A program made the translations under genes and the position numbers. The notes below the pieces were generated by a model that did no database searches, had not been told where the DNA came from, and worked only from the letters and a program-made list of their open reading frames with translations. Positions 5,707-59,185 of a stretch of DNA of 64,000 nucleotides are shown here, piece after piece (position 1 is the first letter of the stretch; each line of letters opens with the position of its first letter). Source of the stretch: Eukaryota sp. TZLM1-RC (taxonomy: Eukaryota; Protista; Metamonada: BaSk clade); assembly GCA_040285825.1 (NCBI GenBank), contig JAUPSS010000006.1, forward strand, positions 248,001-312,000, given 5' to 3'.

Positions 5707-6708
5707 TTATTTATTAAAAACAGAAATATTACCAGCAACTACTTCAGGATTGGTATCAGCAACCCAATACAGAATAGTTTTTTCATATTGGACGTAAAGT
5801 TCGTCATCAGCATTAATATCTTCCGCAGCAAAATAAGCAATCAAGGGATAAGTTACACCATCAAAAGATCGTTCCAAGTCGATGGCATAAACATTAATCT
5901 TTTCCTCGGATGAGGTGTTGACCATCCAGCCAGGACCATATTCCCAGAGTCGTGCCCTGGCATCAATGAAATAATGGTCGTTACAGATTGACCAGGAGAG
6001 AGAATATTGGTTGTCTGGGATTGACCTTTGGCGGAGCTGCATGGCCTTTTTGTCAACTGAGGATTCCTTGGGGTATACTTTGACCGTACACATCGGTAAG
6101 TAATACCCCTTGGAATTGTTATTGAGAGGAGGAGGAGACATAGGGGGATACACTCCTTTAAAGCTATGCGCATCATACAGTGATAGAGAACGAAGCTGAC
6201 TAGTGTCCCTGTACGGGAAGGCTGAAATTAAGGCAGTACGGCCAAGGTAATGGTTTACAAAGGCATCCTGCGAGAGCGTGGGTTCTTGGCAAATGTTGCC
6301 CACCACCCATCGACCATCTAGGAATTGAGCCATCACCGGTAATGAAGAGGTATAAACCAGCCAGACAGGATCGAGACCTTTGACATCACGCTTATGTGCA
6401 ATGACAATCGGTGCATCGCCATCTAGATGTTCTCGATGCCAATAATCAACATTACTGGCAAATGCCTTTACTTGTTGACACAGGTAAGAATTCCTGTAAG
6501 GCGGAATGAACAAGGGGGTGATCCGGGCTGGTTCATCTTGGACAGGCTCTAGTGGTGGCAAGCAGTCAGAATCGGAGCCACATTCTGCATCCCGTCTTGT
6601 TGCTTTGGTGGGTGGCTTTCTCTTCACGGAGCATCCATCTCTTCTGGCCTTGGATTGCCGTGTACTCACCCCCGATTTGCGCTTTCTACATCGTGTGGCA
6701 GGAGGCAT
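5707..6708 (-). CDS. SET-domain protein (divergent lysine methyltransferase), 333 aa, basic N-terminus
   Basis: YFIDAR..GPGWMVNTS..NV..YFAAEDINADDELYVQY matches SET C-terminal motifs (NHS-like and ELxxxY). Confidence 0.75.
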   Translation of the reverse strand: MPPATRCRKRKSGVSTRQSKARRDGCSVKRKPPTKATRRDAECGSDSDCLPPLEPVQDEPARITPLFIPPYRNSYLCQQVKAFASNVDYWHREHLDGDAPIVIAHKRDVKGLDPVWLVYTSSLPVMAQFLDGRWVVGNICQEPTLSQDAFVNHYLGRTALISAFPYRDTSQLRSLSLYDAHSFKGVYPPMSPPPLNNNSKGYYLPMCTVKVYPKESSVDKKAMQLRQRSIPDNQYSLSWSICNDHYFIDARARLWEYGPGWMVNTSSEEKINVYAIDLERSFDGVTYPLIAYFAAEDINADDELYVQYEKTILYWVADTNPEVVAGNISVFNK

Positions 6709-7007
6709 TGAGGTTGTGAGTAATATATAGGTTGAAATAAAAATTTCATTTACATGGAAGCTATATATTCCATTTCAGTTAAATGTATGGAAGCTATATA
6801 TTCCATATAACTACTCTCAAATTAAAACCTAAAACTTGCATCATTATAAACCCAAAACGTCATAAAAAGCATGGTAGTGTACATGTCTTGTTCAAACAAC
6901 TGAATAAAAATTATAAATTAAATTGAATTAAATATTGATTTAAAAATGCAAAACAAGCAGTAATTGAATAAAGACAAATACAAAACAAGGTGTATAATTC
7001 TAGTATC

Positions 7008-7230
7008 ATGAGTGATACAGATAAAGTATGTTTATATGTTGGATTAACCGTAGAAGACAGAGAGTGCTCAATTAGAGAGTGCTCAATCAGAGACAGAGAG
7101 TGTTGTACAGGGATCTAATCCACCCAATGTACCAACTCTACAGGACGCCCACGAGTCGAGTACTGATGATAGTTCTGTATGTAATCCTCTTGTGCTAACC
7201 AGAGATTTAATCTGTGGGGAAGCCCACGGC
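7008..7230 (+). pseudogene. 5' fragment of the telobox-Myb family gene (paralog of 39889); 28-nt introns at 7026-7053 and 7177-7204
   Basis: MSDTDK|KTESAQ..ESSTDDSS colinear with 39889-40070. Confidence 0.7.
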
Positions 7231-7429
7231 AAAGCACTTGACGATTTCTTGACGTGTAATCTTAAGTTAAATCCAATTACAGTTTATTATTCAAGAATCT
7301 CGTTACTGGTTCAATGTCTACGGCAAGTATTCATCATTATAAACTATACCTCTCTGACTTCCCTAAAGAAAATATAGATTGGCACAAGAACATTGCTGCC
7401 GGTGATATGGAAGAATCTGTAATTTTTAA

Positions 7430-8217: not shown

Positions 8218-8835
8218 TTATTTTTATTCAACAACAAATATGAAATACACAATTAAAACTCCACATCCTCAAAACCTGCCTCCCCTACATCAAAACAATT
8301 AATCGCTAAAGATTCAGAAAATTTCCCAAAAGAAAATAGTGAATCAGAAATTAGTTTTACCATTCCCTTAAAAATAGAAAATACAATCCTGTTTTGCCAG
8401 TAAATACGATTGAAAATTCTTCCAGTTCTTTCCTTTACAACTACAACAAAATCCTCAAGGAAAGCCATAGCAGCCTTACCTAGAGATCCAAGCAAAGAAA
8501 AAACAAATGGACATAAATTATATTGGGCATGGGAATTTTCATTCACCGAGGAAATGGGTTTCGCATATTTAGCAATTTTATATTTTTCGCCTGCAAGAAG
8601 AGGATTATTTACATCCGAGTTAATGAGATGTTCGTTAGAGGAATTACAAGGGTCGATAGACATGGCGTCCAAAATAGTAAAACTACCATTTAAACCAGGA
8701 ACAACTAGATCACCTCTAGTCAGACCCATAGAAGCTCTGTTGTAACGCGTACTATCATTATTGGGATCATCAAGAATTAATTTTGATAACAGCGGTTCCA
8801 AAAAGGAATCTACTCTATATGATTTGCACATTACA
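8218..8835 (-). mobile_element. 5'-truncated non-LTR retrotransposon, restriction-like endonuclease (RLE) C-terminus with A-rich tail
   Basis: EPLL..RGDLVV..ILDA..EKYKIAKY..PFVFSLLGSLG pattern; the flank 8090-8217 continues without this element at 47112-47250. Confidence 0.7.
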
Positions 8836-9986
8836 TAAAAAATAAATTTTGAATTTTGAATTTTGAATTTTTTCAACCATGCTGCTATTTGCGTCTTGTT
8901 CTTAAAAATAGACAATAATGTTCTGACGTGGCACGTCAAGCCATTAACCCAGAATTGTTTACAGATGTCCTTAATAAGTAAGTTAAGTGAATGAGTGACG
9001 CAATGACTCGACAACACAATGTTATTATCCTGGAGAGTTTTGAAAAGACCAACAGCTGCTGCGTTGACCGTAGCTCCATCTAAGGTCAACCAAATGATCT
9101 TCTGAGCTTCTTCCACAATCTTTCTTCATTTCGTCAACCCCACTAGATTAGGATCAGAATGTATCTGTATCAATTTAGCCACTTCAGTAGCACCAAAGAC
9201 AATTATATCAGCTAGATGGTCTTGGTTCTGCTCTCGACAGTCCGCTGGTATACAACCGATGTAGAACGATCGTCCGTTCGAGGCAGCAATGATATTGTGA
9301 CGAGGTGTCATACCTGTAGAATAGCCATCAATAGAAAGTTCAAAGGAGTGTGAGATGAGTGAAGGAATAAAGCACTCGGCAATGAGAAGTTTAACTGTTT
9401 GATGGAGCTTTGGAAGAATTGAGTTGGACAGCTGCTGACGATTTGGACCCAGAAAATTAGGTTTAACTTGTTTAGAACGATGAATCTGAGCAAAGTAACG
9501 TAAGAAATCCTGAAAGGATTCCTTTTCAATAGTATTAAAAGATATCCCGGAAAGAGCAAAGGCGAGACATGCTTTCTTTCCTAAAGTTGCTTGAACGTCA
9601 TCTTCTACAAAAAAGTCATTAGTCTCCATTGGATCAGTTAGAGTAATTGCTTCACTAACAGAAGCTGACTCGATATAAGCCTTGTTGTTTTGTTCCTCAA
9701 TGGCTTTTTTTACCTTTTGTTCAGCTAGAAACATAGAAAGTTCTTTTGTATTTTCCCAACCAGAGCATGACGGGATATGGAGAGGTCCCCAGCGACAAGT
9801 GTTCTGCTTGGCGAAAACCTTACCACAGCCTCCACACCACACATCCATGTTGGTGGTGGTCTTCTTGTTGGCGATTTTCACCATTCGCCAGATCGTTTTA
9901 TTGCTATTGACGATATGGGTCTTAAAACCGGGAGGAGGTTCAAGTTTGAAAGACTCCCGGTAGCGGGGGGTGGAGGAAGATGTCAT
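8836..9986 (-). mobile_element. hAT-superfamily transposase, one in-frame TGA at 9126, 3'-truncated by the RLE element
   Basis: BED-like CxxC..H..C, ISFNTIE..F, PNRQQLS, first catalytic D in LSIDGYS, second D in LTLDGA, CxxH motif CVTHSLNL. Confidence 0.8.
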
Positions 9987-9994
9987 AATCAGAA

Positions 9995-10116
9995 TGCAAA
10001 AAAATACAAATCAAAAAATACAAAAAAATACAAATATATCGAAAAAAAATACAAATACAAATACAAAGAAAATACAGAATACAAATAAATACAGAAAATG
10101 GTATTTTGCAAGTATG
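9995..10116. repeat. Degenerate (AAATAC)n subterminal repeats and probable left end of the hAT element
   Basis: Repeated aaatac units ending in tgcaagtatg; absent from the homologous inverted copy at 26620. Confidence 0.55.
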
Positions 10117-15623: not shown

Positions 15624-16283
15624 ATGAAATATTCCAGAGCTTGTTGATTAAAAGGAACAAACCCTGGAACTTTGGTGGCAATTGGGGATAAGGCATGTCT
15701 TCGAAATACATTTGGGCATGTACTTTCTAGACGATGTAAAATTGACAATCCCCAATGGCTTATCAACCAACAATTATAAACAGTGACATCCAATTCATCA
15801 CGCCTCAGGGCACGCGTATACAAATCATTAGATGTTACTGTTTGGTTCCAAATTTCGGAAATATGAAAATGATATTCATCATACCATTGTCTTAAATTTT
15901 CAGAAATTGTGGAACCGGAAACCACACAACTGGCATACTTTGATGGAGCAGGACACTCCATCTGCTTACCCATAGACCTGAAGAAATTCAGTTTTCAGGT
16001 CACAGGGCCATCGGTCAGCAGCTGTCTGTGAGCTGATTCGAGTTGAACAGCTCTATTGCTAAAAAGAGCAGCCTGACAAAAGGGTGGATGTTCTTGGCCC
16101 TCTACTAACGGAGGCCACGGCCAGGTAGCACTTGATGTCATATGCATAAAAGCCTCATAGACATCAGGGTTAGTGCTCTTGAAAGGCTCCCTAATTTTAG
16201 GTCGACTGTGGGTGACGCAGTCGAAGCACTGCGACCAGAATTGACGGTGAGCGAGCCAGCAGGACAGATGCGGATAGATGCTC
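15575..16283 (-). pseudogene. Unknown 'DGPVxWKxNFF / CPxPxKYA' family member; TGA at 15995, 5' end replaced by Ty3 sequence
   Basis: QFWSQCFD..WPWPP..LLTDGPVT*KLNFF..CPAPSKYA..QWY aligns by eye with the 33362 ORF. Confidence 0.75.
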
Positions 16284-18204
16284 CTTGCAGAAATCCGTGC
16301 AACAAGTTAAGAGTGTCCTTAATGAGTGATTTGGGAATCACTATCTTGTTGTCGAGAGTCATGTATAAATCAAGATGATTGTTATGAACACTGTTGTTGA
16401 AAGAGGGGTCTTTGGAAGCTTCGGCAAGCTTCTGTTCCGACCTAATCCTACAGAGCCATGGCTCGAAAATAGGGAGGTCGTTGAAACATCGTTCTTTGAT
16501 GACCATGATACGTTCGAAATTGTTTAAATCTTCTATGTAGTATCTTCCGTTTTCTGTTCTATCTATTTTATCGATATAAAATATTGGATGAAAATTTGGA
16601 GACATTTGATGGGACAAATGATTGATCTCTTGATGGTCTATAGGCGGAACTATTCGAGACAACATATCAGCCCAGAAGTTATCTTCCCCTTTGGTGTGTA
16701 CCAATTCAAAGCAGAATTTAGAGAAAATGGGTAACCATCAGGTTACAATTCTGTTCTTGTCTGGAGCTGTGAACATGTAGGTAAGGTTTTGATGGTCTGT
16801 GAATATGACCAGTTTCCTTCCTTTCAAGTAGTTTTCGAAACCACTTTGTGTCAACATCAGTAAGATGGCATAGAGTTCCTTTTGGTTTGTTGGCCAGTTC
16901 TTTTGCGAGTTGGTTAGCAACCTGCTGAAGAAACTGATGGGCCTACATTTCCTGTTGATCAGGGGAGTACCGGGGTCGTCGACTTGTTCGATTTGTTCCC
17001 ATATGACGCCGCCTACAGCAATGTCGGATGCGTCGCAACTTATTAAAATTTGATTTTCCAGTGGAGGTAAGTTGTACGGCATGTGCTGAGCTATCAGTTG
17101 TTTGATCTTTTGAAGGAGTCCGTCATGCATATCCATTGTAGGCGTTGCGCTCGGGGTTTGGGTTTAATGTTGGCGTTGTTCCCAACCTTCTTAGTCAATC
17201 TGATGATAGGAGCAATGAGCTCAGATACCTGAGGAAGCCATTCTCTAATGAAGTTGACTGATCCTACGAGGCTGCGGACGTCTTTGATTGTCTTTGGTCT
17301 AGGTAGATTCAACAAAGATTCAACACGAGTGGGATCGAAGGTCCGTTGTTTGTTTTGGAAAACACTGCCCAGTATCTTGATGGGGTGTCTGGAAGACACG
17401 AAATGGCACTTTGGAAGTCCCAATGAAACTCTTTTGCATCTAGTTTGATCGAGGACGCGTCGGAAACGCTCGATGAATTCGTCAAAGGTTGAACCTATGA
17501 TTATGATGTCATCTATATAGATGAATACACCGTCTCCAGAGAAGATGTCAGCCATGACGTTTTGGAAAACGGCTGGGACATTTTTGAGGCCAAACGCTGC
17601 ACGTTTGCACATGATGCTTTCACCAGGAATGCTCAGGGCTGTTTTGTGCCAGTCCTTTTCAGCAATCTTGAGTTGCCAAAAGGCTTGGGGGGGGGGGGTC
17701 GAGGGTGCCTATGTAGTTTGCTTGAGAGAGAAATACCAGCACATCGGAGATCCTTGGAAGGTTGGGCTCAACAGGAATGGTGTTGGCGTTGACTCCGTCC
17801 TTGCCACTATAATCACCAGTAAGGCGGGGCTTACAGTGATCTGGGTAGACCACTAGACAGACAGGGGAGCTGAACTCATGGTTCGATGGAACAGCAAATC
17901 CAGAGTCTACGAGTTCGTCGAAAATTTGGTTAGCGACCTCTAGCCTGGCTGGATTCAGGGTCCTGGGGGGTTTTCTAACTCTGACGTCTTCATTGTAGAA
18001 GTTGATTTCCATGGGATTGGTGGGCAGACCAATCTTTCGCCTACTAATACACAGGGAGAAGTCGGGAGCCATTGGTATCTCACATGCCATGTCCGGATTA
18101 CTCCAATACTTTGCAAAACCCACCAGGTTTCTGGTTAGTGCTTTCAATAGCCTATTGTAATGTAAACGGTATTGGTGGTCCATGAGAATGGGGATATACG
18201 TCAA
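16284..18204 (-). mobile_element. Ty3/gypsy LTR retrotransposon pol (RT, RNase H, start of integrase), frameshifted and truncated
   Basis: FSSPVCLV, FGLKNVPAVFQ, YIDDIII (RT); CDASDIAVG, FFSRLL, ELYAI, FTDHQNL (RNase H); GEDNFWADMLSR; RT-RH-INT order. Confidence 0.93.
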
Positions 18205-21200
18205 GATGCAATTTCACCTATATTACTCTAATGATCTTAATGCTTTTTCCATGTTAATCCTTCCTGACGTTCTCTTGCTGAACAATGTTAGTCTTTCATC
18301 CAGCAGCTGATCTACACCCATATTTCAAAAGAAGGAAATGAACCATTGTATTTGATTGTATGTTGTGTTGTACATGGATACATAAATCAGTATTGGTATT
18401 TATTTTTGTTTCAACATTTTGTCAACACTAGTCAACAATTGGCAATGTTCCAATTATCGGGGTTAATGCTCAGATTTAGCAAGACATTGTATTTGGATAT
18501 AATTGTATACTATGACATGACTACTGCAATTGTGTTTCTTGTATCTGAAGAACAAATGCAACATTTTATAGATTTACATGGTATTTATAGTTTTGTATAT
18601 TTGATAAATAAACAAGGTTGTAATAGTCTTTATTATTGAAGAGTATTAGAAAACTAAGTATTAGCCTAGAAATAGGCTATTCGTATCCTTACAGGTGATA
18701 GGCCCATATAAATAGGCCCAGATAGATGTTTGTTTAATAAAATTTTAAAGTTTTACACCTCAAATATATTTCCAAGAAATTGCTCTCGAAAAAATGGAAA
18801 TTCAATTTGCTTGTATTTTGTTGTACAATAAAACAAAACTTAGTTAATTTATTTTTTACGTAATAAATGTTTGACACTTTTAGAGATTTTATGACAATTT
18901 ATGGGGAGGTTAATGATAATGAATTATCTTTAAAGAAAACCATTATTATTACATAATATATTGGTGAATCTATTATGATATTAAAACGATATTCTCCACG
19001 TTCATATCTTTCATAACGAAAATACCAAACTTCGATAGGATAGGATCGATAGGATTGACACATGAAATTAAATTTCTTCCAATAAAGCATGTAAACAATT
19101 TAAAATTATTCATTTGAAAAGGTGAATTCAATTTTAAACTTCATTTTCTGATGAAAAGTTTGTGATGTGTTGAACGCAAATTCATTGTCCTTCATGGATT
19201 CATTGACCATAATGCTATTTGTCAGTGATCAGTGGACCAATGACAATTAGAATTTATTCAATTCCAATCTTCGCCCACAAAAACATAGACGAGATTTACT
19301 AAAAAAAATTTTTGAAAAAAAAATTGTTGTTGAAAAATTCTATTTTTGAATTTCTCGATCGTTTCCCTGAAGACATTCATTTGCTGCTGAATCCATCATC
19401 TACGCATTATTTGTATGACCTTGATATTGCTATTAATAAAATTACACCAGAAATTGGGTTGTTCTTGCAATGAATATAATATATCAAATGATAAATTATG
19501 TTTGAATTGTGTAATCATGTTGAAAATATTCAAATAAATATTAATTCATCGACAAACAGATTGAATTTGTAGACAAGTGTTTGAATTGTGTTGACAGAAA
19601 AAGTATATATTAATAGGGAATTGAAAACAACTAACTCTGAACTTATGACAGGAGCTTTATTTTGTAAAAAATTGGCCAATACACAGTGAATCAGCTGATG
19701 TTAGTTTGTCAATGATCCATACCAATCTCAGTTTGTGTCAGAAAAAATGTTAAAACAGAGACCAGAATCAATTTATTTATATCGGAAATCTCCTTTTAAA
19801 TGGTAATCACCAATCAGAAATAATAAAACAAGAATATAGGCAACTCACTAGTGAGCTGACTCGTGGGTACTGTCAGGAGACATGTAAGATACTGTAAATG
19901 AATAAATGAATTACTCAATTACATACATTCCTTAAATGTCATAAAACTACTCCTCTAGTGACATCACTTCTCAACACATACTTGTCAAAAGATGTATAAA
20001 AACCAACCAAGAACAGCATGAGCTCATTTTTCAGTGGCTTTGTTTTAGTATTTGTAACTATCAATATTTGTTGTACCTTGAAAATAAACTCTTGGTGTTG
20101 CCTTATGTTTAAATGAGTTAGGAAAATTGGATTTATTTTCTATTTCAAAGTAATTTTTTATTTTACCACATTATATAAGAATTAAGGCTCCACCACAGCT
20201 TCTTCCTTTTTTCAGAAATCAATCATCTTATACGAATATGAAACCAAAATATAAACAAATAAATAAATAACTATCAATACTGAGAACTAGCTATGGTTCC
20301 TAATTCTATCACTACGTCTAAGAAGTTTAGTGGACGTAGCGTAGGACACTACCTATGGTCGAAATTTTCGATCTTTTTTTGGTCAAACATTTTTACAAAC
20401 ACGGTACTTTATTCTACTACCCAATAATTAATACCCAAACATATAATTAATTCCATCAAGGTCTTTAGGTACCCATTCAATGGTTCACTGTTAAAGAAAA
20501 GAGGTATGTAAAAGGACGTAGCACACAATGTGATCCTGTTGAAAGTTAAAAGACGATGAAACAACCTTGACAGCGACCATTTTTTTACGAGCGTTTGGGT
20601 GTCTAGTTCATTCGGAACGACCTTTTCATATAAGCAGCAGAGCAGTGAGATTAGTAAAACCAGGTGATACATCCAAAAGAACTGCACAGGGGAGCATTTG
20701 TAGCAAAGCAGCTTTTGCCGTTTGATGCAAAGTTTTTTTTATCACTGATTTTGGACCGACGATGTTCATAAGAGATGTCTAGGTGTATATCAACCATAAA
20801 AATTGTAGATAAGATAAATAAAAGGGACTAAAGGTCATCCGCAGAAGCGTGTGGTACTTTTTAACGTATTATATCGTTCAAAGAACGAAGTAAAAGGTCA
20901 GCTTGTGTATTTAGTCCGGACGACGGAATAGATGATAATCGTCTTCCAGAAAATGACACTACTGAAGGAGAAACTAAGGAGAAACTAAGTATAGATATTA
21001 ATAGATACTCCCCTGTAATTAGAAAATTAGTTTATAGATATGTACAAGTCTAAAAAGCTGAAAATTGAAAAGAAAAATGAAACAATGAATAAATACCGTA
21101 TAAATAAATACTTTACTACTGACTAACAATAAATTTACATATGATAAATAGAATAATAATAATAATAATTTTTTATTTGTTAAAATATGGTTAATTTAGA

Positions 21201-39888: not shown

Positions 39889-40562
39889 ATGAGTGACAAT
39901 ATTCAAGTATGTTTATATAATGGATTAACCATAGAAGACAGATAGTGCTCAATCAGAGACAGAGAGTGTTGTACAAGAATCTAATCCACCCAATGTACCA
40001 ACTCCACATGACGCCCACGAGTCGAGTACTGATGATAGTTCTGTAAGAATTCCTATTGTGCTAACCACAGATCCAATCTGAATCCCCTGACTCTAGTTCT
40101 GAAGAAGTTCTAATCCATTCACCACCACCTCCTAGGGACACACTACTGAAAATAACTCTAGGTAGTTTCATCAGTCATTTTGGTGTCCCAGCAGTACTTA
40201 CTACTGTTGCTGATATGGTGGATGTTAGAGCAAGAAGAACTGGTAGCAGTGTTGAACCAACTAAAACACAAAGGACTGCTATTCAGCCGGTGAGCGATGA
40301 AACCAGTGTACCCGTGTCTACTAAGAGAGTTCACTGGACCCCCCAAGAAAGTAAAAACCTGTGGATTCTGTGGAAAAACACAGATCCAAATCCTTGCCGC
40401 AGAAACAACTGGAAACGAATTCTAGAAACTGGACACATGCAAAGTGCTTTTTGTGCTGATCGCAACCCTGGTAAGCTCAAAGACCGTCTCCGTTGGCTCC
40501 AGGACAATCCTCATTATGGTAAAGAGCAAGATTTCCCAGAGGATGAGAAAGAGGATCAATAG
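39889..40562 (+). CDS. Intact spliced telobox/TRF-like Myb protein, 205 aa; exons 39889-39906, 39935-40042, 40071-40562
   Basis: Two 28-nt GT..AG introns give one open frame; C-terminal HWTPQESKNL..NWKRIL..F..RNPGKLKDRLRWL. Confidence 0.8.
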
Positions 40563-53900: not shown

Positions 53901-55412
53901 TACTTACAACAATTATATTTATGAATTAATTTGAGGGTTTCTTTTTTTACCTCAACAAAATTAATTCATTTTATTTTCTTTTTGTACTACAACAATTTAA
54001 ATTGATTTTTTTTGAAAGATAGAATGAGGATAGAATTGTCCTCTCCGCTAGAGCTGGAGGAAGACTGAGCGTTAGCGGAAGGAGGATATCTTGTCATGCC
54101 AGTCATGACATGATTTGACATACGAGACGCGTAAATCTTAAGAGCCTCAACTCAGCGGGAGATGGATTCTCGACCGGTATGTTCTAAATACAGGGCAACT
54201 GGGAAGGAGAACGTATCCTTCTTGAAGATTCTGGAGTGATCCTTTCATCGACGAGATATGGACCAATTCTGGGAGAGATCCATAATCCTAAGTCGTTCTC
54301 GACTTTAGGACCGTAGAAAGGAGGACGTTTGTTGCTCATCTCCGTGGGAGGGATGGCTTCTGGGTCCTCCGGAAGGACCTGTGGATCCCTATAACGTGCA
54401 TAAGGATTGTGCTGACGGGAAGCACCGTGATGATGAATACTAGAGCTAGCGTGGTAGCTTGTTTGGGTGGGAGTGAATTGAGCAGGTGTAGAGGATGTTC
54501 CTCTTCTAGCTTGAATCATCCACCGGTGGTGTATTGAGAGCAGACTGAACACTGTTATTGGTCTGAACCACAGACTCTCTGAAAATTTTCCTCCTGACGG
54601 GAACTCTGCGCACTATCTGCAGTGGAGTTTTAGTACAACTATTAAAACTATCAATTAATTAAAACGAACTTTTTTTAATGGAGGAGGAAGGGTGTTTTTC
54701 GGTAACTTTGGAAGTTTCAACTTTGGTGGGCTCTGCAACTTTTGGGTGGTTATCAGAATTGTACTGACACCAAATGCAGTCTGGGTCAGACTCAGTAGGA
54801 GGATTTGGATCATTCAAATCCAAGTAATCATCGTCTTTGTGATTTAAAAGGTGATGGGTTCTGTCTCTATTGTTTTTACACGTTTGACAACGATGTCTGT
54901 TGTGAGTAGAACAAACAGTAGCACCTCCATATGTCTCGCCTACAGATTGAGATGAGGATAGTTCTGAGAAAGAGCGTTCTGCATCAGACCAGTCTTCTAC
55001 CTTTGCAAGACCGGGACGAGGAGGCGAGGGAGGGCAAACAGGGTTCTAATGTTAATAAAGCGATGGTCACATACATCAGCAAGCTGAGTAGCATCTTGGA
55101 TATGCTGATCCTGGGTGGATGTGCATCCATGGGTTCATCATTTGTGCTGATAACAGCAACAACACCAGGTACGGCAACAGCAGATGTGACACAGTCAAGT
55201 AGCTCTTGGAGAGTGTACTTGCCAGTTAAAAAGACTTCGCGGGATAAGTACTGTGATTAGTGAATGTGTCGGAACCCGACATACTTGGTTAATCATAACG
55301 AGAATTATGGGATATGAAAATTCGAAATTTCATTCATGCTATTTAAATATTTAGACAGTATAATGGTGTGGAAAAATTTTAAATTTATTTTTATACGTGT
55401 GATGACGTGTCA

Positions 55413-56330
55413 CTATTTAGATCTATTAATATAAAGGATACGAGTACCTCCTACTGCTTCAATAACTGAATCTGATGTGATTTTACCTGGGTCTGTCATA
55501 ATCATCATAAGTAACCGGTTGCGTTTAGCAACATATGGGTTTCCTCCTTCAGAACAAGACTTGGAGTAATCTACCCATAAATTAAGTGCTGAGGCAACAT
55601 TGAATTCTGCAATATGATTAGTTCCTGTGTGATCTGTTGGTTTAAATTCGACTAATCTATCTTGAAGTACTTGGAAACGTTTGAGCATGAATGCATGACT
55701 GAAAACATCAACCATTGGTTGCTTTGGGTCATAATTAAAATTACGATAAGCAGCATCGTGGTGATTGGAATCATATGATGCAAACATACATGGAAGTATG
55801 TCATGTGCGAAGGAAGTTGGTGCTTCTGGAAAACCATCAGCTTGAAATGTTTGATTACCTGGTTCAAGTTCCTGGAATTTAGCATATCTTGGCATGTAAC
55901 TTGGGTTGTTAGGTTCCTTATATATAAAAAGGATAACACGTGCACGTGGATGAGAACATTTAGTTGCTTTAAGAGCAACGCGTGATTCAATACCTTTGAT
56001 AACAATTGCCTTATCTAATGTGTTTGTAGATTGAGAATTAGCTTGAATTTGTGTTAAATCTTGAATAGTCAACCATTTACCATCTTTAGAATAATAAGGT
56101 GCAGATTGTGCAAGAAGATTCTTAACTGCCTGTTTTGAAGAATCAATTGTTGGATTTAATGGAAAAATTGCATGTTCCAATGGAGTACTTTTACGAGGAG
56201 CATAAGTGCGAGAAGGAGGAGGTTTGTAAAGAGATCGTAAAGATCTGCGACCATATGCACCATAACCAGCATTACGTGCCCTACGATTAGGAAAACGTCT
56301 TCTGCGACGAAATCTACGACGAGGATACAT
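55413..56330 (-). CDS. cap: CRESS virus capsid protein (Arg-rich arm, jelly-roll), virion sense
   Basis: MYPRRRFRRRRR N-terminus; RVILFIYK, RFQVLQD and C-terminal RILY resemble gemini/genomo/STNV-type capsid strands. Confidence 0.85.
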   Translation of the reverse strand: MYPRRRFRRRRRFPNRRARNAGYGAYGRRSLRSLYKPPPSRTYAPRKSTPLEHAIFPLNPTIDSSKQAVKNLLAQSAPYYSKDGKWLTIQDLTQIQANSQSTNTLDKAIVIKGIESRVALKATKCSHPRARVILFIYKEPNNPSYMPRYAKFQELEPGNQTFQADGFPEAPTSFAHDILPCMFASYDSNHHDAAYRNFNYDPKQPMVDVFSHAFMLKRFQVLQDRLVEFKPTDHTGTNHIAEFNVASALNLWVDYSKSCSEGGNPYVAKRNRLLMMIMTDPGKITSDSVIEAVGGTRILYINRSK

Positions 56331-56368
56331 GTTGTGAAAAAAATAATGTTATTTTTCTGATTTCTCTT

Positions 56369-57403
56369 ATGACACACGAACTTGCTTACTCAAAAACTCA
56401 AACTGATGCTGGTAATCTCTGGAACCTTGGTTTAACCAAATATAATGGTGGAAAAAATGACGTGATAAGAACAAAAAGATGGAACCATACCGGTACCATC
56501 GGAACAACTGACTTTATGTGGGTCATGTACAACACTCACACGAATGCTTTGAATGAATATGTATGGCCATGCACACATGTTCTAGATAATGATAAGGCCA
56601 AAAACGGAATTTTCAATCGAACATATTTAAAGTGGAATGAGGATTCAGAAGATGATGAAGAAATAACTAATGATGCAACCAGAAGAACAGTTGCACCAGC
56701 TAACAGACCAATGGTTGTAAGTAACAACAATGGTTTTGACTTTGGAGAAGGAACTGATTTTTCAAGAACAAGATTGTACTTCCGGATGACGTTAGATACT
56801 ATTTCATATAGACATGGATATGGAATAGGAAATGGTGCCGATCAATTAATAGAAAGACGGCATTTTGTCAAAACTGAAGAACATTATGATTGTGACTACA
56901 TGGGCAGGTTGATTATTTGGATAGACAACACAATGGAAGGAGAATGCGCTCTGATAAATAATGAACAATGGTGTGAAGATATTCAAAGAAGTCCAGAAAG
57001 GGAAGATTTAGTTGCTAATGACTTTGAATATAATTGGTCTAAATATTGGACCAATGCAACAACTGGTATGTTGCGTTATAGAGGTAAAAACACTACTGAA
57101 ATACTGAGTGCAAAGTGTAAAGGTAAAGTTCTTCATGATGAAATCTTTGATATTAAATACAAAGAAATGAATGTTGTTGAAGGTGTTGTAGAAGGAATTG
57201 CTGATAGGAGTGAAGGACCAAACTTAACTGATGAAGGTCCTTTAAAGTATACACTTATAGTTGGAGGTATGAGAGGAGGTGTTGAAACGAATTCAGCTTA
57301 CTTTGAAGGAAATTGGGGTACGTATGACCCTGAACCTTTTGCTATAATGGGTAATGTGCTGAATTATAGTATGGTGTTTGATTTTAGATTTAGTTCAAAA
57401 TAA
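56369..57403 (+). CDS. Viral 344-aa protein, putative second jelly-roll/minor capsid
   Basis: Intact ORF; GRLIIWID, KVLHDEIFDI and terminal VFDFRF parallel the capsid strands; no basic arm. Confidence 0.55.
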   Translation: MTHELAYSKTQTDAGNLWNLGLTKYNGGKNDVIRTKRWNHTGTIGTTDFMWVMYNTHTNALNEYVWPCTHVLDNDKAKNGIFNRTYLKWNEDSEDDEEITNDATRRTVAPANRPMVVSNNNGFDFGEGTDFSRTRLYFRMTLDTISYRHGYGIGNGADQLIERRHFVKTEEHYDCDYMGRLIIWIDNTMEGECALINNEQWCEDIQRSPEREDLVANDFEYNWSKYWTNATTGMLRYRGKNTTEILSAKCKGKVLHDEIFDIKYKEMNVVEGVVEGIADRSEGPNLTDEGPLKYTLIVGGMRGGVETNSAYFEGNWGTYDPEPFAIMGNVLNYSMVFDFRFSSK

Positions 57404-57408
57404 ATGAT

Positions 57409-57822
57409 TTATGGTAAACCCATATATGGGCGGCGTCTACGAGCTGCTATAAATTTCTTTCTTCTAGTTACAAAGTTAATAAAATCTTTGTTCTTAAAGT
57501 TTTTCTTCCAATCATCTGTAAATTTTTCTCGTCTGTTGACTCTATCATTTACACGTTTTTTGTGAAAAAGAGAAGATGGATCTTTAGGTTTATGAAGTCT
57601 GGACCATTCATAATATAAACCTTGTTTGTATTCACGACCGAAAGATGGAAGATGTTGATTGGGGTCAGGATCAGGAATATATGAATATTCCACTTGGGGA
57701 TATTTGGGTGTATGAAGTGCTCCTGCACTGTCTCTTTCCTTGTAAACGTCTGTATGAGGTTTTTTAGGTGGATGATAACCTTCCCATTGGGGAACAAATG
57801 TACCTATTCTTCTTTTACCCAT
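57409..57822 (-). CDS. Viral basic protein, 137 aa, in frame with the upstream ORF
   Basis: Intact, K/R-rich; its stop is 5 nt from the convergent ORF's stop. Confidence 0.65.
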   Translation of the reverse strand: MGKRRIGTFVPQWEGYHPPKKPHTDVYKERDSAGALHTPKYPQVEYSYIPDPDPNQHLPSFGREYKQGLYYEWSRLHKPKDPSSLFHKKRVNDRVNRREKFTDDWKKNFKNKDFINFVTRRKKFIAARRRRPYMGLP

Positions 57823-57909
57823 ATAAGCCTTTTGATATGTAGGATCAGTTTGTGCCTTTTCGGCATCAAAATCAGCATCGAAATATCTATTATGATGATA
57901 ACCAACTAG

Positions 57910-58710
57910 TTAGTTCTTAAGATGAGGGTGTTGAATGTCGTCCCACTTGACTTCGCCTGGAGCATGGCGAGTGTTGATACCTGGATCTCTTTTAAACTGT
58001 TTTTCTGTAGCGTGTTCAGTAGCATGTGTTGATGTAGATACAAGAGATATCTTACCATCTTTACCTTTAGATATATACTGTGGCTCAGTAAATTGATGAA
58101 CCATATGGTCTCTTCTACGTTGATTAAGTTCTGCACGACTTCGCATATAATTGCGATGTCTACGATAAGATCTATAAATAGACATTGGAAGATTAAGGGC
58201 CGTGTAAGGCATATTCCTTCTTCTATAATAAAATTTGGGTCTATAAGATCTTTGTTGATAAGGAAAACTACGGAAACTATAATTGTTTCCAAGAGGTTGA
58301 TGAAGAGATGATATATGTAAAGGCATATGATTATTTCTGGAAGGTATAGCCCATTGGGGTCTATTTTTCTCCCAATAATGATTTGTGATTCTATCACCAA
58401 TAGCACCAATAACTTTTTGGTGCGTAAAAGGATGTGATAATGTAGAATAAAGGACTTGACCATAAGGAGATTGGGTTGTAGACATCCATTTATATGATTT
58501 GGATGCTAAACCATAACCTTCAGGAGCTAGGGAACCTAGAGCTGCCATTCCTGCACTCTTTGGATAATCGCGCCAATTATGGTTTGATTTTCCAAAAGTA
58601 TTTTTGAAAAATTGATAACCAGTGCCGATAACTGCACCAGTTAAAGCCCTGGTGAAGGGATTTGCAACAACGGGATAAAGTGTGTTAGGTTGTAATTGGG
58701 GTATGTTCAT
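57910..58710 (-). CDS. Viral 266-aa protein, Gly/Ala-rich N-half and Arg/Tyr-rich C-half
   Basis: Intact ORF starting 56 nt from the origin stem on the virion strand. Confidence 0.7.
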   Translation of the reverse strand: MNIPQLQPNTLYPVVANPFTRALTGAVIGTGYQFFKNTFGKSNHNWRDYPKSAGMAALGSLAPEGYGLASKSYKWMSTTQSPYGQVLYSTLSHPFTHQKVIGAIGDRITNHYWEKNRPQWAIPSRNNHMPLHISSLHQPLGNNYSFRSFPYQQRSYRPKFYYRRRNMPYTALNLPMSIYRSYRRHRNYMRSRAELNQRRRDHMVHQFTEPQYISKGKDGKISLVSTSTHATEHATEKQFKRDPGINTRHAPGEVKWDDIQHPHLKN

Positions 58711-58765
58711 GAAGGGAAATAAAATGAAATTAAAAATTGCATTTGGTGATGACGTGGCAACACTT

Positions 58766-58798
58766 GAAAAGCGTGGGTAATACTAATTCACGCTTTTC
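58766..58798 (-). promoter_or_regulatory. Rolling-circle origin: perfect 10-bp stem with TAGTATTAC nonanucleotide (58777-58785, minus strand)
   Basis: gaaaagcgtg-ggtaatactaatt-cacgcttttc. Confidence 0.95.
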
Positions 58799-58843
58799 TA
58801 TCATTCTCACTGTGTGTGTCATCATCATCTTGATTCACTATAG

Positions 58844-59185
58844 ATGGTAAACCGAAACCCTGTCAAGAGCTGGTTCTTCACTTTGAACAATCCAAGCGAA
58901 GAGGAAACGAATGCTTTGGTCGATGACTTGAAAGGATTGGCAAGATGCGCAACTGTTGGAAAGGAAGTAGGAGAATCCGGAACACCTCATCTACAAGGAT
59001 GCTTTGTGCTGAGAGATGCCATGAAACTAAAAGATTTGAAGAACAAGCTTAATGAAAGAGCCCATTGGGAACCTATGAAGAACGTAAAGAAAAGCCGTGA
59101 ATATTGTAAAAAGGAAGGTAATGTAATCTTAGACTTTGGATATCCTGAAGCTAATATTGACATCAATAAATTAAAACTGTTGTAA
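58844..59185 (+). pseudogene. rep: CRESS Rep, HUH endonuclease domain only (helicase lost)
   Basis: Motif I FTLNN, motif II PHLQG, motif III YCKK; the last ~11 codons derive from the flanking repeat. Confidence 0.93.

Follow-up and report, generated by a model that had tools for sequence, protein, structure and literature searches.

A lone TAA followed by CTAG in a 433-codon frame of an endogenous CRESS virus element

In luteoviruses the MP gene is overprinted on the CP gene. CP and MP are expressed by leaky scanning, and an extension of CP is added by readthrough (PMC3542737). Readthrough sites of type II mostly possess a 3' stem-loop (PMC3542737). In OPRL1, replacement of UGA by UAA reduces CUAG-dependent readthrough about 6-fold from 31% (PMC4132726); in the viral contexts of type II UAA is read at background level, and it is not employed by any of the four genera of animal viruses reviewed (PMC13517186). 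Among the viral readthrough cases in Table 5 of PMC3542737, UAA appears in 2 of the 18 rows and UAA-CUA in none, and in mosquitoes a stop codon that is TAA throughout counts against readthrough (PMC5100048). Endogenous cressdnaviruses have been reported from gut protists, including Kirkoviridae in parabasalids, CRESSV1 in Blastocystis, and the Naryaviridae, Nenyaviridae and Vilyaviridae (PMC9615429). The literature searched, including the available parts of PMC6330207 and PMC11437466, yielded no case of readthrough in a CRESS virus, and a search for viruses under the genus name of the organism with the most similar Rep led only to other subjects.

Here we analyze a CRESS virus element located in a 64-kb stretch of eukaryotic DNA (hereafter the window), in which two ORFs are separated by a stop codon with CTAG behind it. 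The interrupted frame is real and well-defined, and the ordinary explanation, a nonsense lesion, is ahead of its competitors.

The endogenous element and its surroundings

The original prediction attributed the two ORFs to a single-stranded DNA (CRESS) virus that had become endogenous, and the Rep gene, the replication origin and the capsid gene bear this out (Table 1). The element measures about 3.8 kb (about 55350-59151) and is otherwise intact apart from Rep, which after about codon 102 is joined to the middle of a host repeat beginning at about 59152, and in which the SF3 helicase domain is absent. The remaining part of Rep contains FTLNN, PHLQG and YCKK, which we take to be motifs I-III. 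A search with this sequence returned 327 matches, the best of them, at 53% identity, an annotated fragment from Eukaryota sp. TZLM1-RC, with which it forms a clade (SH-aLRT 98) in a quick tree calculated for the endonuclease only (121 rows, 117 columns). In this tree, whose set includes few named rows and no kirkovirus reference, it does not fall near the Sthenivirus (Gandrviridae) row. Taken together with the host intron type described below, the pairing with the TZLM1-RC fragment suggests an anaerobic protist of metamonad-like kind as the host. The Rep described here and the TZLM1-RC fragment both end within a few residues past the same C-terminal motif of the endonuclease; the host repeat begins where the former ends, which may be either a coincidence or a break point shared with the latter.

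Table 1. Features of the element and of the interrupted frame (window coordinates)
Feature	Position	Strand	Remarks
Capsid (Cap, ORF305)	55413..56330	-	305 aa; intact; Arg-rich N-terminus
ORF344	56369..57403	+	Acidic orphan; intact; convergent with ORF137, stops 5 nt apart
ORF137	57409..57822	-	Orphan; C-terminal tail rich in Lys/Arg
29-codon spacer	57823..57909	-	Codon bias of viral type, strong in the frame shared by ORF266 and ORF137
CTAG after the stop	57906..57909	-	TAG (57908-57906) is the ORF185 stop; with the preceding bases also reads as branch motif plus AG
ORF185	57906..58463	-	+1 frame of ORF266; GRAVY 0.78, 19-residue window up to 2.26
Candidate frame-keeping introns	57906..58064	-	Donors 57980, 58055, 58064; common acceptor 57906; poor fit to inferred host spacing
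Single in-frame TAA	57910..57912	-	Short-read contig covers the site without difference
ORF266	57910..58710	-	5' part of the 433-codon frame; orphan; basic; Tyr/His/Pro-rich (composition)
CACGTCA promoter-like element	58748..58758	-	Upstream of ORF266; putative function
Rolling-circle origin	58766..58798	-	Perfect 10-bp stem, z = -6.4, 0/200 shuffles
Rep, HUH endonuclease domain only	58844..59151	+	Pfam Viral_Rep E 1.4e-15

The loop of the origin contains the nonamer TAGTATTAC (58785-58777), which occurs once in the window. Cap has no sequence match in Pfam or the PDB and no homologue in the sequence collections searched; it is assigned to the capsid clusters of Cressdnaviricota (Atlas features 0.97, TM 0.56) and on this basis counts as the jelly-roll capsid protein expected of this group. 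A scan of viral contigs with Cap reported 2 stretches encoding a capsid relative and returned 0 loci. Searches with ORF344 revealed no family and no relative, and its single-sequence fold has a pLDDT of 28. The scans led by Rep recovered 7 distant CRESS loci (33-50% identity) together with 7 chance pattern matches, and none of these 14 matches the orphan proteins or Cap; a pattern scan of metagenomes gave 0 loci and Rfam 0 matches, while a sigma-70 scan is inapplicable to a eukaryotic virus. The viral and metagenome collections searched contain no free relative, and the element is known here as a linear, truncated, integrated copy. Its contig depth (2-3.4) is like that of the few exact-match host pieces, and it is a dead insertion, likely present in a single copy. 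It belongs with the endogenous elements of Cressdnaviricota, with no family assignable.

The CACGTCA element upstream of ORF266 recurs at 56458-56464, upstream of Cap, and at 55403-55409, and there is none before ORF137. GATGACGTG occurs twice in the 64 kb, both times inside the element (the shared motifs lie at 55359-55410, 56441-56465 and 58748-58758), and TATAATGGTG followed by GAAAAA is found in two copies, each of them near a TGACGTG; both motifs are possibly viral promoter elements. Pyrimidine tracts precede the starts of ORF266, ORF185, Cap and ORF344 (pyrimidine fractions of 0.75-0.92, with 0.42 for ORF137 and 0.50 for Rep).

Outside the element, the window consists of degraded transposon and repeat DNA. 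It includes a SET-like ORF at 5707-6774 (Pfam E 0.002, under the cut-off), a remnant of a DUF659-like transposase at 8253-10010 (E 0.003) and a broken retrotransposon pol at 16138-18213 (RVT_1 E 4.6e-10). To the left of the capsid gene, the minus strand carries a gene (54659-55296) with two candidate introns of the host type and a last exon rich in Cys and His, in which the second consensus intron requires a 1-nt frame change in exon 2. Its GC content, which is above that of the virus, and the host repeat downstream suggest that it is a host transposon. Since it sits behind the same CACGTCA element as the viral genes, it is uncertain where the virus ends on the left.

The interrupted frame and ORF185

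ORF266 and ORF137 had been assigned to a common frame with no strand named. They do share one, which runs on the minus strand (stops are plentiful on the plus strand), and a lone TAA divides its 433 steps. CTAG lies directly 3' of this codon, and the gap up to the ATG of ORF137 comprises 29 open codons that encode the peptide originally given. As far as can be judged, an assembly error is to be rejected as the origin of the TAA, because a short-read contig of run X1 (record 5, depth 3.4) spans 57773-58016 with neither a differing letter nor a gap; X1 is possibly the sample behind the assembly of the window, and the agreement is to be read as a check at the level of reads, not as an independent copy. 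The idea that TAA is a sense codon in this element is likewise rejected: one internal TAA stands against 1,183 sense codons, and ORF137 and ORF344 end convergently at TAA.

The openness of the spacer is unremarkable alone, as 2,020 of 20,000 base shuffles are also open. Its codon bias, however, scores 16.6 bits when the model is trained on the other genes of the element, a value reached by 0 of 20,000 shuffles, and 14.9 bits when training is confined to Cap, ORF344 and Rep. The five other frames of the spacer score negative or near zero (-2 to -38 bits), and genuine coding windows of equal size taken from ORF266, ORF137 and Cap score 4-19 bits. There is no drop in bias across the stop (0.53 bits per codon in the spacer versus 0.32 in ORF266), and the GC content of 0.34 resembles that of coding DNA, two of the three intergenic stretches measured having 0.21-0.26 and the origin region 0.35. 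The spacer is or was protein-coding and continuous with ORF137, as had been proposed, and from the strength of its bias it follows that both halves are, or were, one gene. As for the context of the stop, CTAG follows one of the 411 stop-reachable codons, namely the TAA site itself, and any classic readthrough context follows 4 of them; CTA is rare among the Leu codons of the element (6 of 74).

Tyr, His and Pro abound in both halves of the frame, which are basic and hydrophilic, and an Arg/Lys tail closes the frame. Counting from the origin along the virion strand, ORF266 comes first, behind the CACGTCA element that it has in common with the capsid gene. The 433-step frame belongs to no protein family in Pfam, retrieves from 5.8 billion proteins and from 1.84 billion representatives only the proteins of the window itself or nothing, has no relative in viral contigs, metagenome contigs, phage records or the Atlas, and gives no match to the PDB (all E above 0.2). 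Similarly, ORF166, which consists of the spacer and ORF137, has no homologue beyond itself in the collections searched, and the single-sequence fold of the whole frame (pLDDT 45) is uninformative. We infer that the unbroken gene would encode a basic, largely disordered protein with an accessory or minor structural role and a tail rich in Arg/Lys, and our best guess is that it binds DNA. Small DNA viruses have minor capsid proteins that it resembles, by analogy and not by homology.

The original prediction missed ORF185 (185 aa), which overlaps ORF266 from an ATG at 58463 and terminates at the TAG of CTAG. Its frame has 197 open codons, a length attained by 4 of 5,000 codon shuffles and by 0 of 5,000 synonymous permutations; it was the only one of ten frames tested with p < 0.05, and allowing for the ten frames its significance is about 0.01-0.02. 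A stop in the +1 frame is avoided at all 11 positions where synonymous choice could make one (4.6 expected, p = 0.0018), which is matched by 16 of 20,000 resamplings. The start of ORF185 has a pyrimidine tract like those of ORF266, Cap and ORF344, and five ATGs on the same strand lie upstream of it. ORF185 is not called in the protein collection and has no homologue in the sequence collections searched. Judging from its sequence, it is likely to be a hydrophobic gene overprinted inside ORF266. As such it would give CTAG a role without any readthrough; yet two stops 1 nt apart look deliberate. A frameshift from ORF185 into the frame of the spacer is rejected, as reasoning from the sequence finds no re-pairing at the junction.

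Readings of the stop codon

Programmed readthrough and a single nonsense mutation were the two explanations originally offered, and they are still the leading ones. What did not stand is the position of readthrough as the front-runner: its hallmarks are missing (the stop is UAA rather than UGA or UAG, and there is no 3' structure), and the TAG within CTAG does a separate job by terminating ORF185. With a probability of roughly 0.5, we propose that ORF266, the spacer and ORF137 are a single 433-codon gene broken by one nonsense mutation. An intact gene of this length in a CRESS virus would have acquired the TAA by one substitution, either in a defective genome copy that integrated or later in the host chromosome; the present-day stop would end translation after 266 residues. 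CTAG would be present because its TAG ends ORF185, and the adjacent stop would be a coincidence of the order of 1 in 100 to 1 in 400. Decay is the usual prior for lone stops in endogenous viral elements, and the element is dead, with its Rep truncated within a host repeat. Also in favour of a lesion are the bias of the spacer, which is at the top of the true-coding range and seamless across the stop, and ORF137, which has no start signature of its own (neither a pyrimidine tract nor CACGTCA).

In the 1,183 intact codons, 5.1% of single substitutions lead to a stop, TAA being the commonest (254 of 539 routes), and therefore one stop is to be expected after about 20 substitutions, or 0.5% divergence. 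The copy of the host repeat that adjoins the element is separated from other copies by 1 of 75 and 5 of 146 bases (1-3%), which is of comparable order, though either the virus or the repeat may have been inserted first. Besides the TAA and the truncation of Rep, neither the 1,183 codons nor the origin stem nor the motifs of Rep revealed a further lesion, so that decay has barely begun. The difficulties for a nonsense mutation are that the CTAG context is improbable for a random event (1/411, a cost of 0.25-1%), that CTA is a rare codon, that overlapping frames ending 1 nt apart look designed, and that no homologue carrying a sense codon at the TAA site was found in the collections searched. 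The verdict is drawn from internal evidence. By our own rough estimate, the prior odds of a lesion versus a lesion-free readthrough virus are about 12 to 1, and the likelihood ratio of UAA-CUAG, estimated as roughly, favours readthrough by about 2 to 14; hence the lesion leads by about two to one, with a wide error.

Programmed readthrough is a tentative alternative. According to it, the TAA would mostly end a protein of 266 aa, and in a few percent of cases translation would pass, aided by CUAG, and add a basic extension of 167 residues; equally tentatively, the overprinted ORF185 would in that case end at the TAG of the CTAG motif itself. The rarity of CTAG under random mutation, the otherwise lesion-free state of the element and the strongly coding spacer all speak for this possibility, as do the observation that UAA-CUAG in OPRL1 is weakened, not abolished (PMC4132726), and the precedent of a gene, an overprinted gene and a readthrough extension in luteoviruses (PMC3542737). 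It is opposed by the identity of its stop codon, UAA being the weakest for readthrough and at background level in type II viral contexts, and by the prediction of no 3' stem-loop: the sequence after the TAA has z +0.84, with 159 of 200 shuffles folding as well, and none of 14 windows falls below z -1.64. Of the type II features, one of the two triplets expected directly 3' of the stop, CUA or CGG, is present (CUA), whereas the UGA stop and the 3' stem-loop are not, and the junction thus lacks two features that define the class. We consider it somewhat more doubtful still that a CRESS virus of anaerobic protists combined UAA-CUAG readthrough, yielding short and tail-extended forms, with a +1 overprinted membrane protein ending on the TAG of the motif, in a luteovirus-like module of three products.

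Alternative splicing is improbable, for reasons other than the one originally given. It had been claimed that no nearby GT donor would keep the frame, which is wrong: only the GTs 41 and 46 nt upstream break it, while donors 75, 150 and 159 nt upstream keep it with no internal stop and would give products of 408, 383 and 380 aa, respectively. In this scenario ACTAAC-TAG would be a branch point fused to a 3' splice site, with the unspliced mRNA encoding ORF266 (and ORF185) and the spliced one a protein of 380-408 aa, so that one motif would account for the TAA and the TAG as well as for the offset of 1 nt between them. The donor at 58055 reads GTAAGA, a type shared with one of the introns inferred for the host, which appears to use introns with fused branch point and acceptor, some of them longer than 36 nt, and CRESS viruses with intron-containing Reps are known (10.1101/687855). 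However, AG follows the branch motif at a spacing of 1 here and of 3 in the inferred host introns. Giardia and Trichomonas keep this spacing invariant, and splicing is abolished when it is shifted (PMC6679479). We see no folding in the candidate introns by which they would become shorter. Weak evidence against splicing also comes from the protein collection, which carries ORF266 and ORF137 as two separate unspliced NCBI proteins.

Judging from genomic DNA, the introns of the host are apparently very short (26-34 nt), with the branch pentamer fixed 3 nt before AG. Short candidates with spacing 3 and GTATG or GTAAG donors number 7, compared to 0.8 expected (0 of 40 simulations), or 11 versus 3.7 expected with a looser donor. 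Spacing 1 is not clearly enriched, either among short candidates (3 versus 1.1 expected, 3 of 40 simulations), one of which has a second AG at spacing 3, or among those of 37-200 nt (8 versus 9.4). Removal of two 28-nt introns restores a host ORF of 205 aa at 39889-40562 (+), with a paralogue at about 7010-7250, and further host intron candidates are found at 5033-5008, 19722-19695, 55284-55251 and 55074-55046 (-). At the introns inferred for the host, runs X1-X3 exhibit no joints; the runs behaved as DNA contigs and are silent on expression. The main text of PMC11316075, as far as available, contains no intron statistics. A short intron of the host type over the TAA is rejected, as none of the 12 candidates listed for the element is near the stop.

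Even less probable are two separate genes, with ORF266 ending at the TAA, ORF137 expressed from its own ATG by reinitiation or from a shorter transcript, and the bias of the spacer left as a relic of recent gene fission. ORF266 and ORF185 do end together, like a real gene end, and ORF137 starts with an ATG and stays open for 137 codons, both ORF266 and ORF137 being called as proteins. Against this stand the undecayed bias of the spacer and its GC content of 0.34, which fits coding DNA, and neither CACGTCA nor a pyrimidine tract precedes ORF137 (the tract is missing in Rep, too). A non-AUG start inside the spacer is rejected, as its 29 codons include no near-cognate CTG, GTG or ACG. Any explanation beyond lesion, readthrough, splicing and separate genes is very improbable.

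If the stop is a product of decay, the locus is of modest value, as a near-pristine record of a CRESS lineage that is gene-rich, unclassified and linked to a protist host, with Rep, a capsid, three or four orphan proteins, one of them likely overprinted, and a sister Rep in Eukaryota sp. TZLM1-RC. If readthrough were true, this recoding strategy would extend to CRESS-DNA viruses, UAA would be able to serve in a natural CUAG context, and the junction could provide a compact reporter of termination fidelity for a deep-branching eukaryote.

Comparison with described systems

The element resembles the cressdnavirus elements of protists (PMC9615429) in the combination of a Rep endonuclease, a nonamer stem-loop and a capsid gene in eukaryotic DNA, here a repeat-rich contig of 1.5 Mb. 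It differs from them in that at least three orphan genes, on both strands, lie between the origin and the capsid gene. The fused introns of Giardia, Spironucleus and Trichomonas (PMC6679479) share with the junction the placement of ACTAAC directly before YAG, and the host appears to use introns of the same type. However, the spacing is 4-5 nt in the consensus of those organisms (PMC6679479), 3 nt in the inferred host introns and 1 nt at the viral site.

With the type II sites, UGA-CUA(G), of alphaviruses, OPRL1, AQP4 and MAPK10 (PMC4132726, PMC3542737), the junction has in common CUAG 3' of an in-frame stop and a coding-like extension. Unlike them, it has a UAA stop and no 3' stem-loop, and it belongs to a DNA virus of a likely protist host. 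The module of CP, MP and readthrough extension in luteoviruses and poleroviruses (PMC3542737) offers the same arrangement of a main ORF, a second ORF within it and an in-frame extension past the stop. The two are not homologous, though: the capsid protein of the present element is ORF305 and not ORF266, and the stop context is UAA-CUAG, as opposed to AAA-UAG-GUA in luteoviruses.
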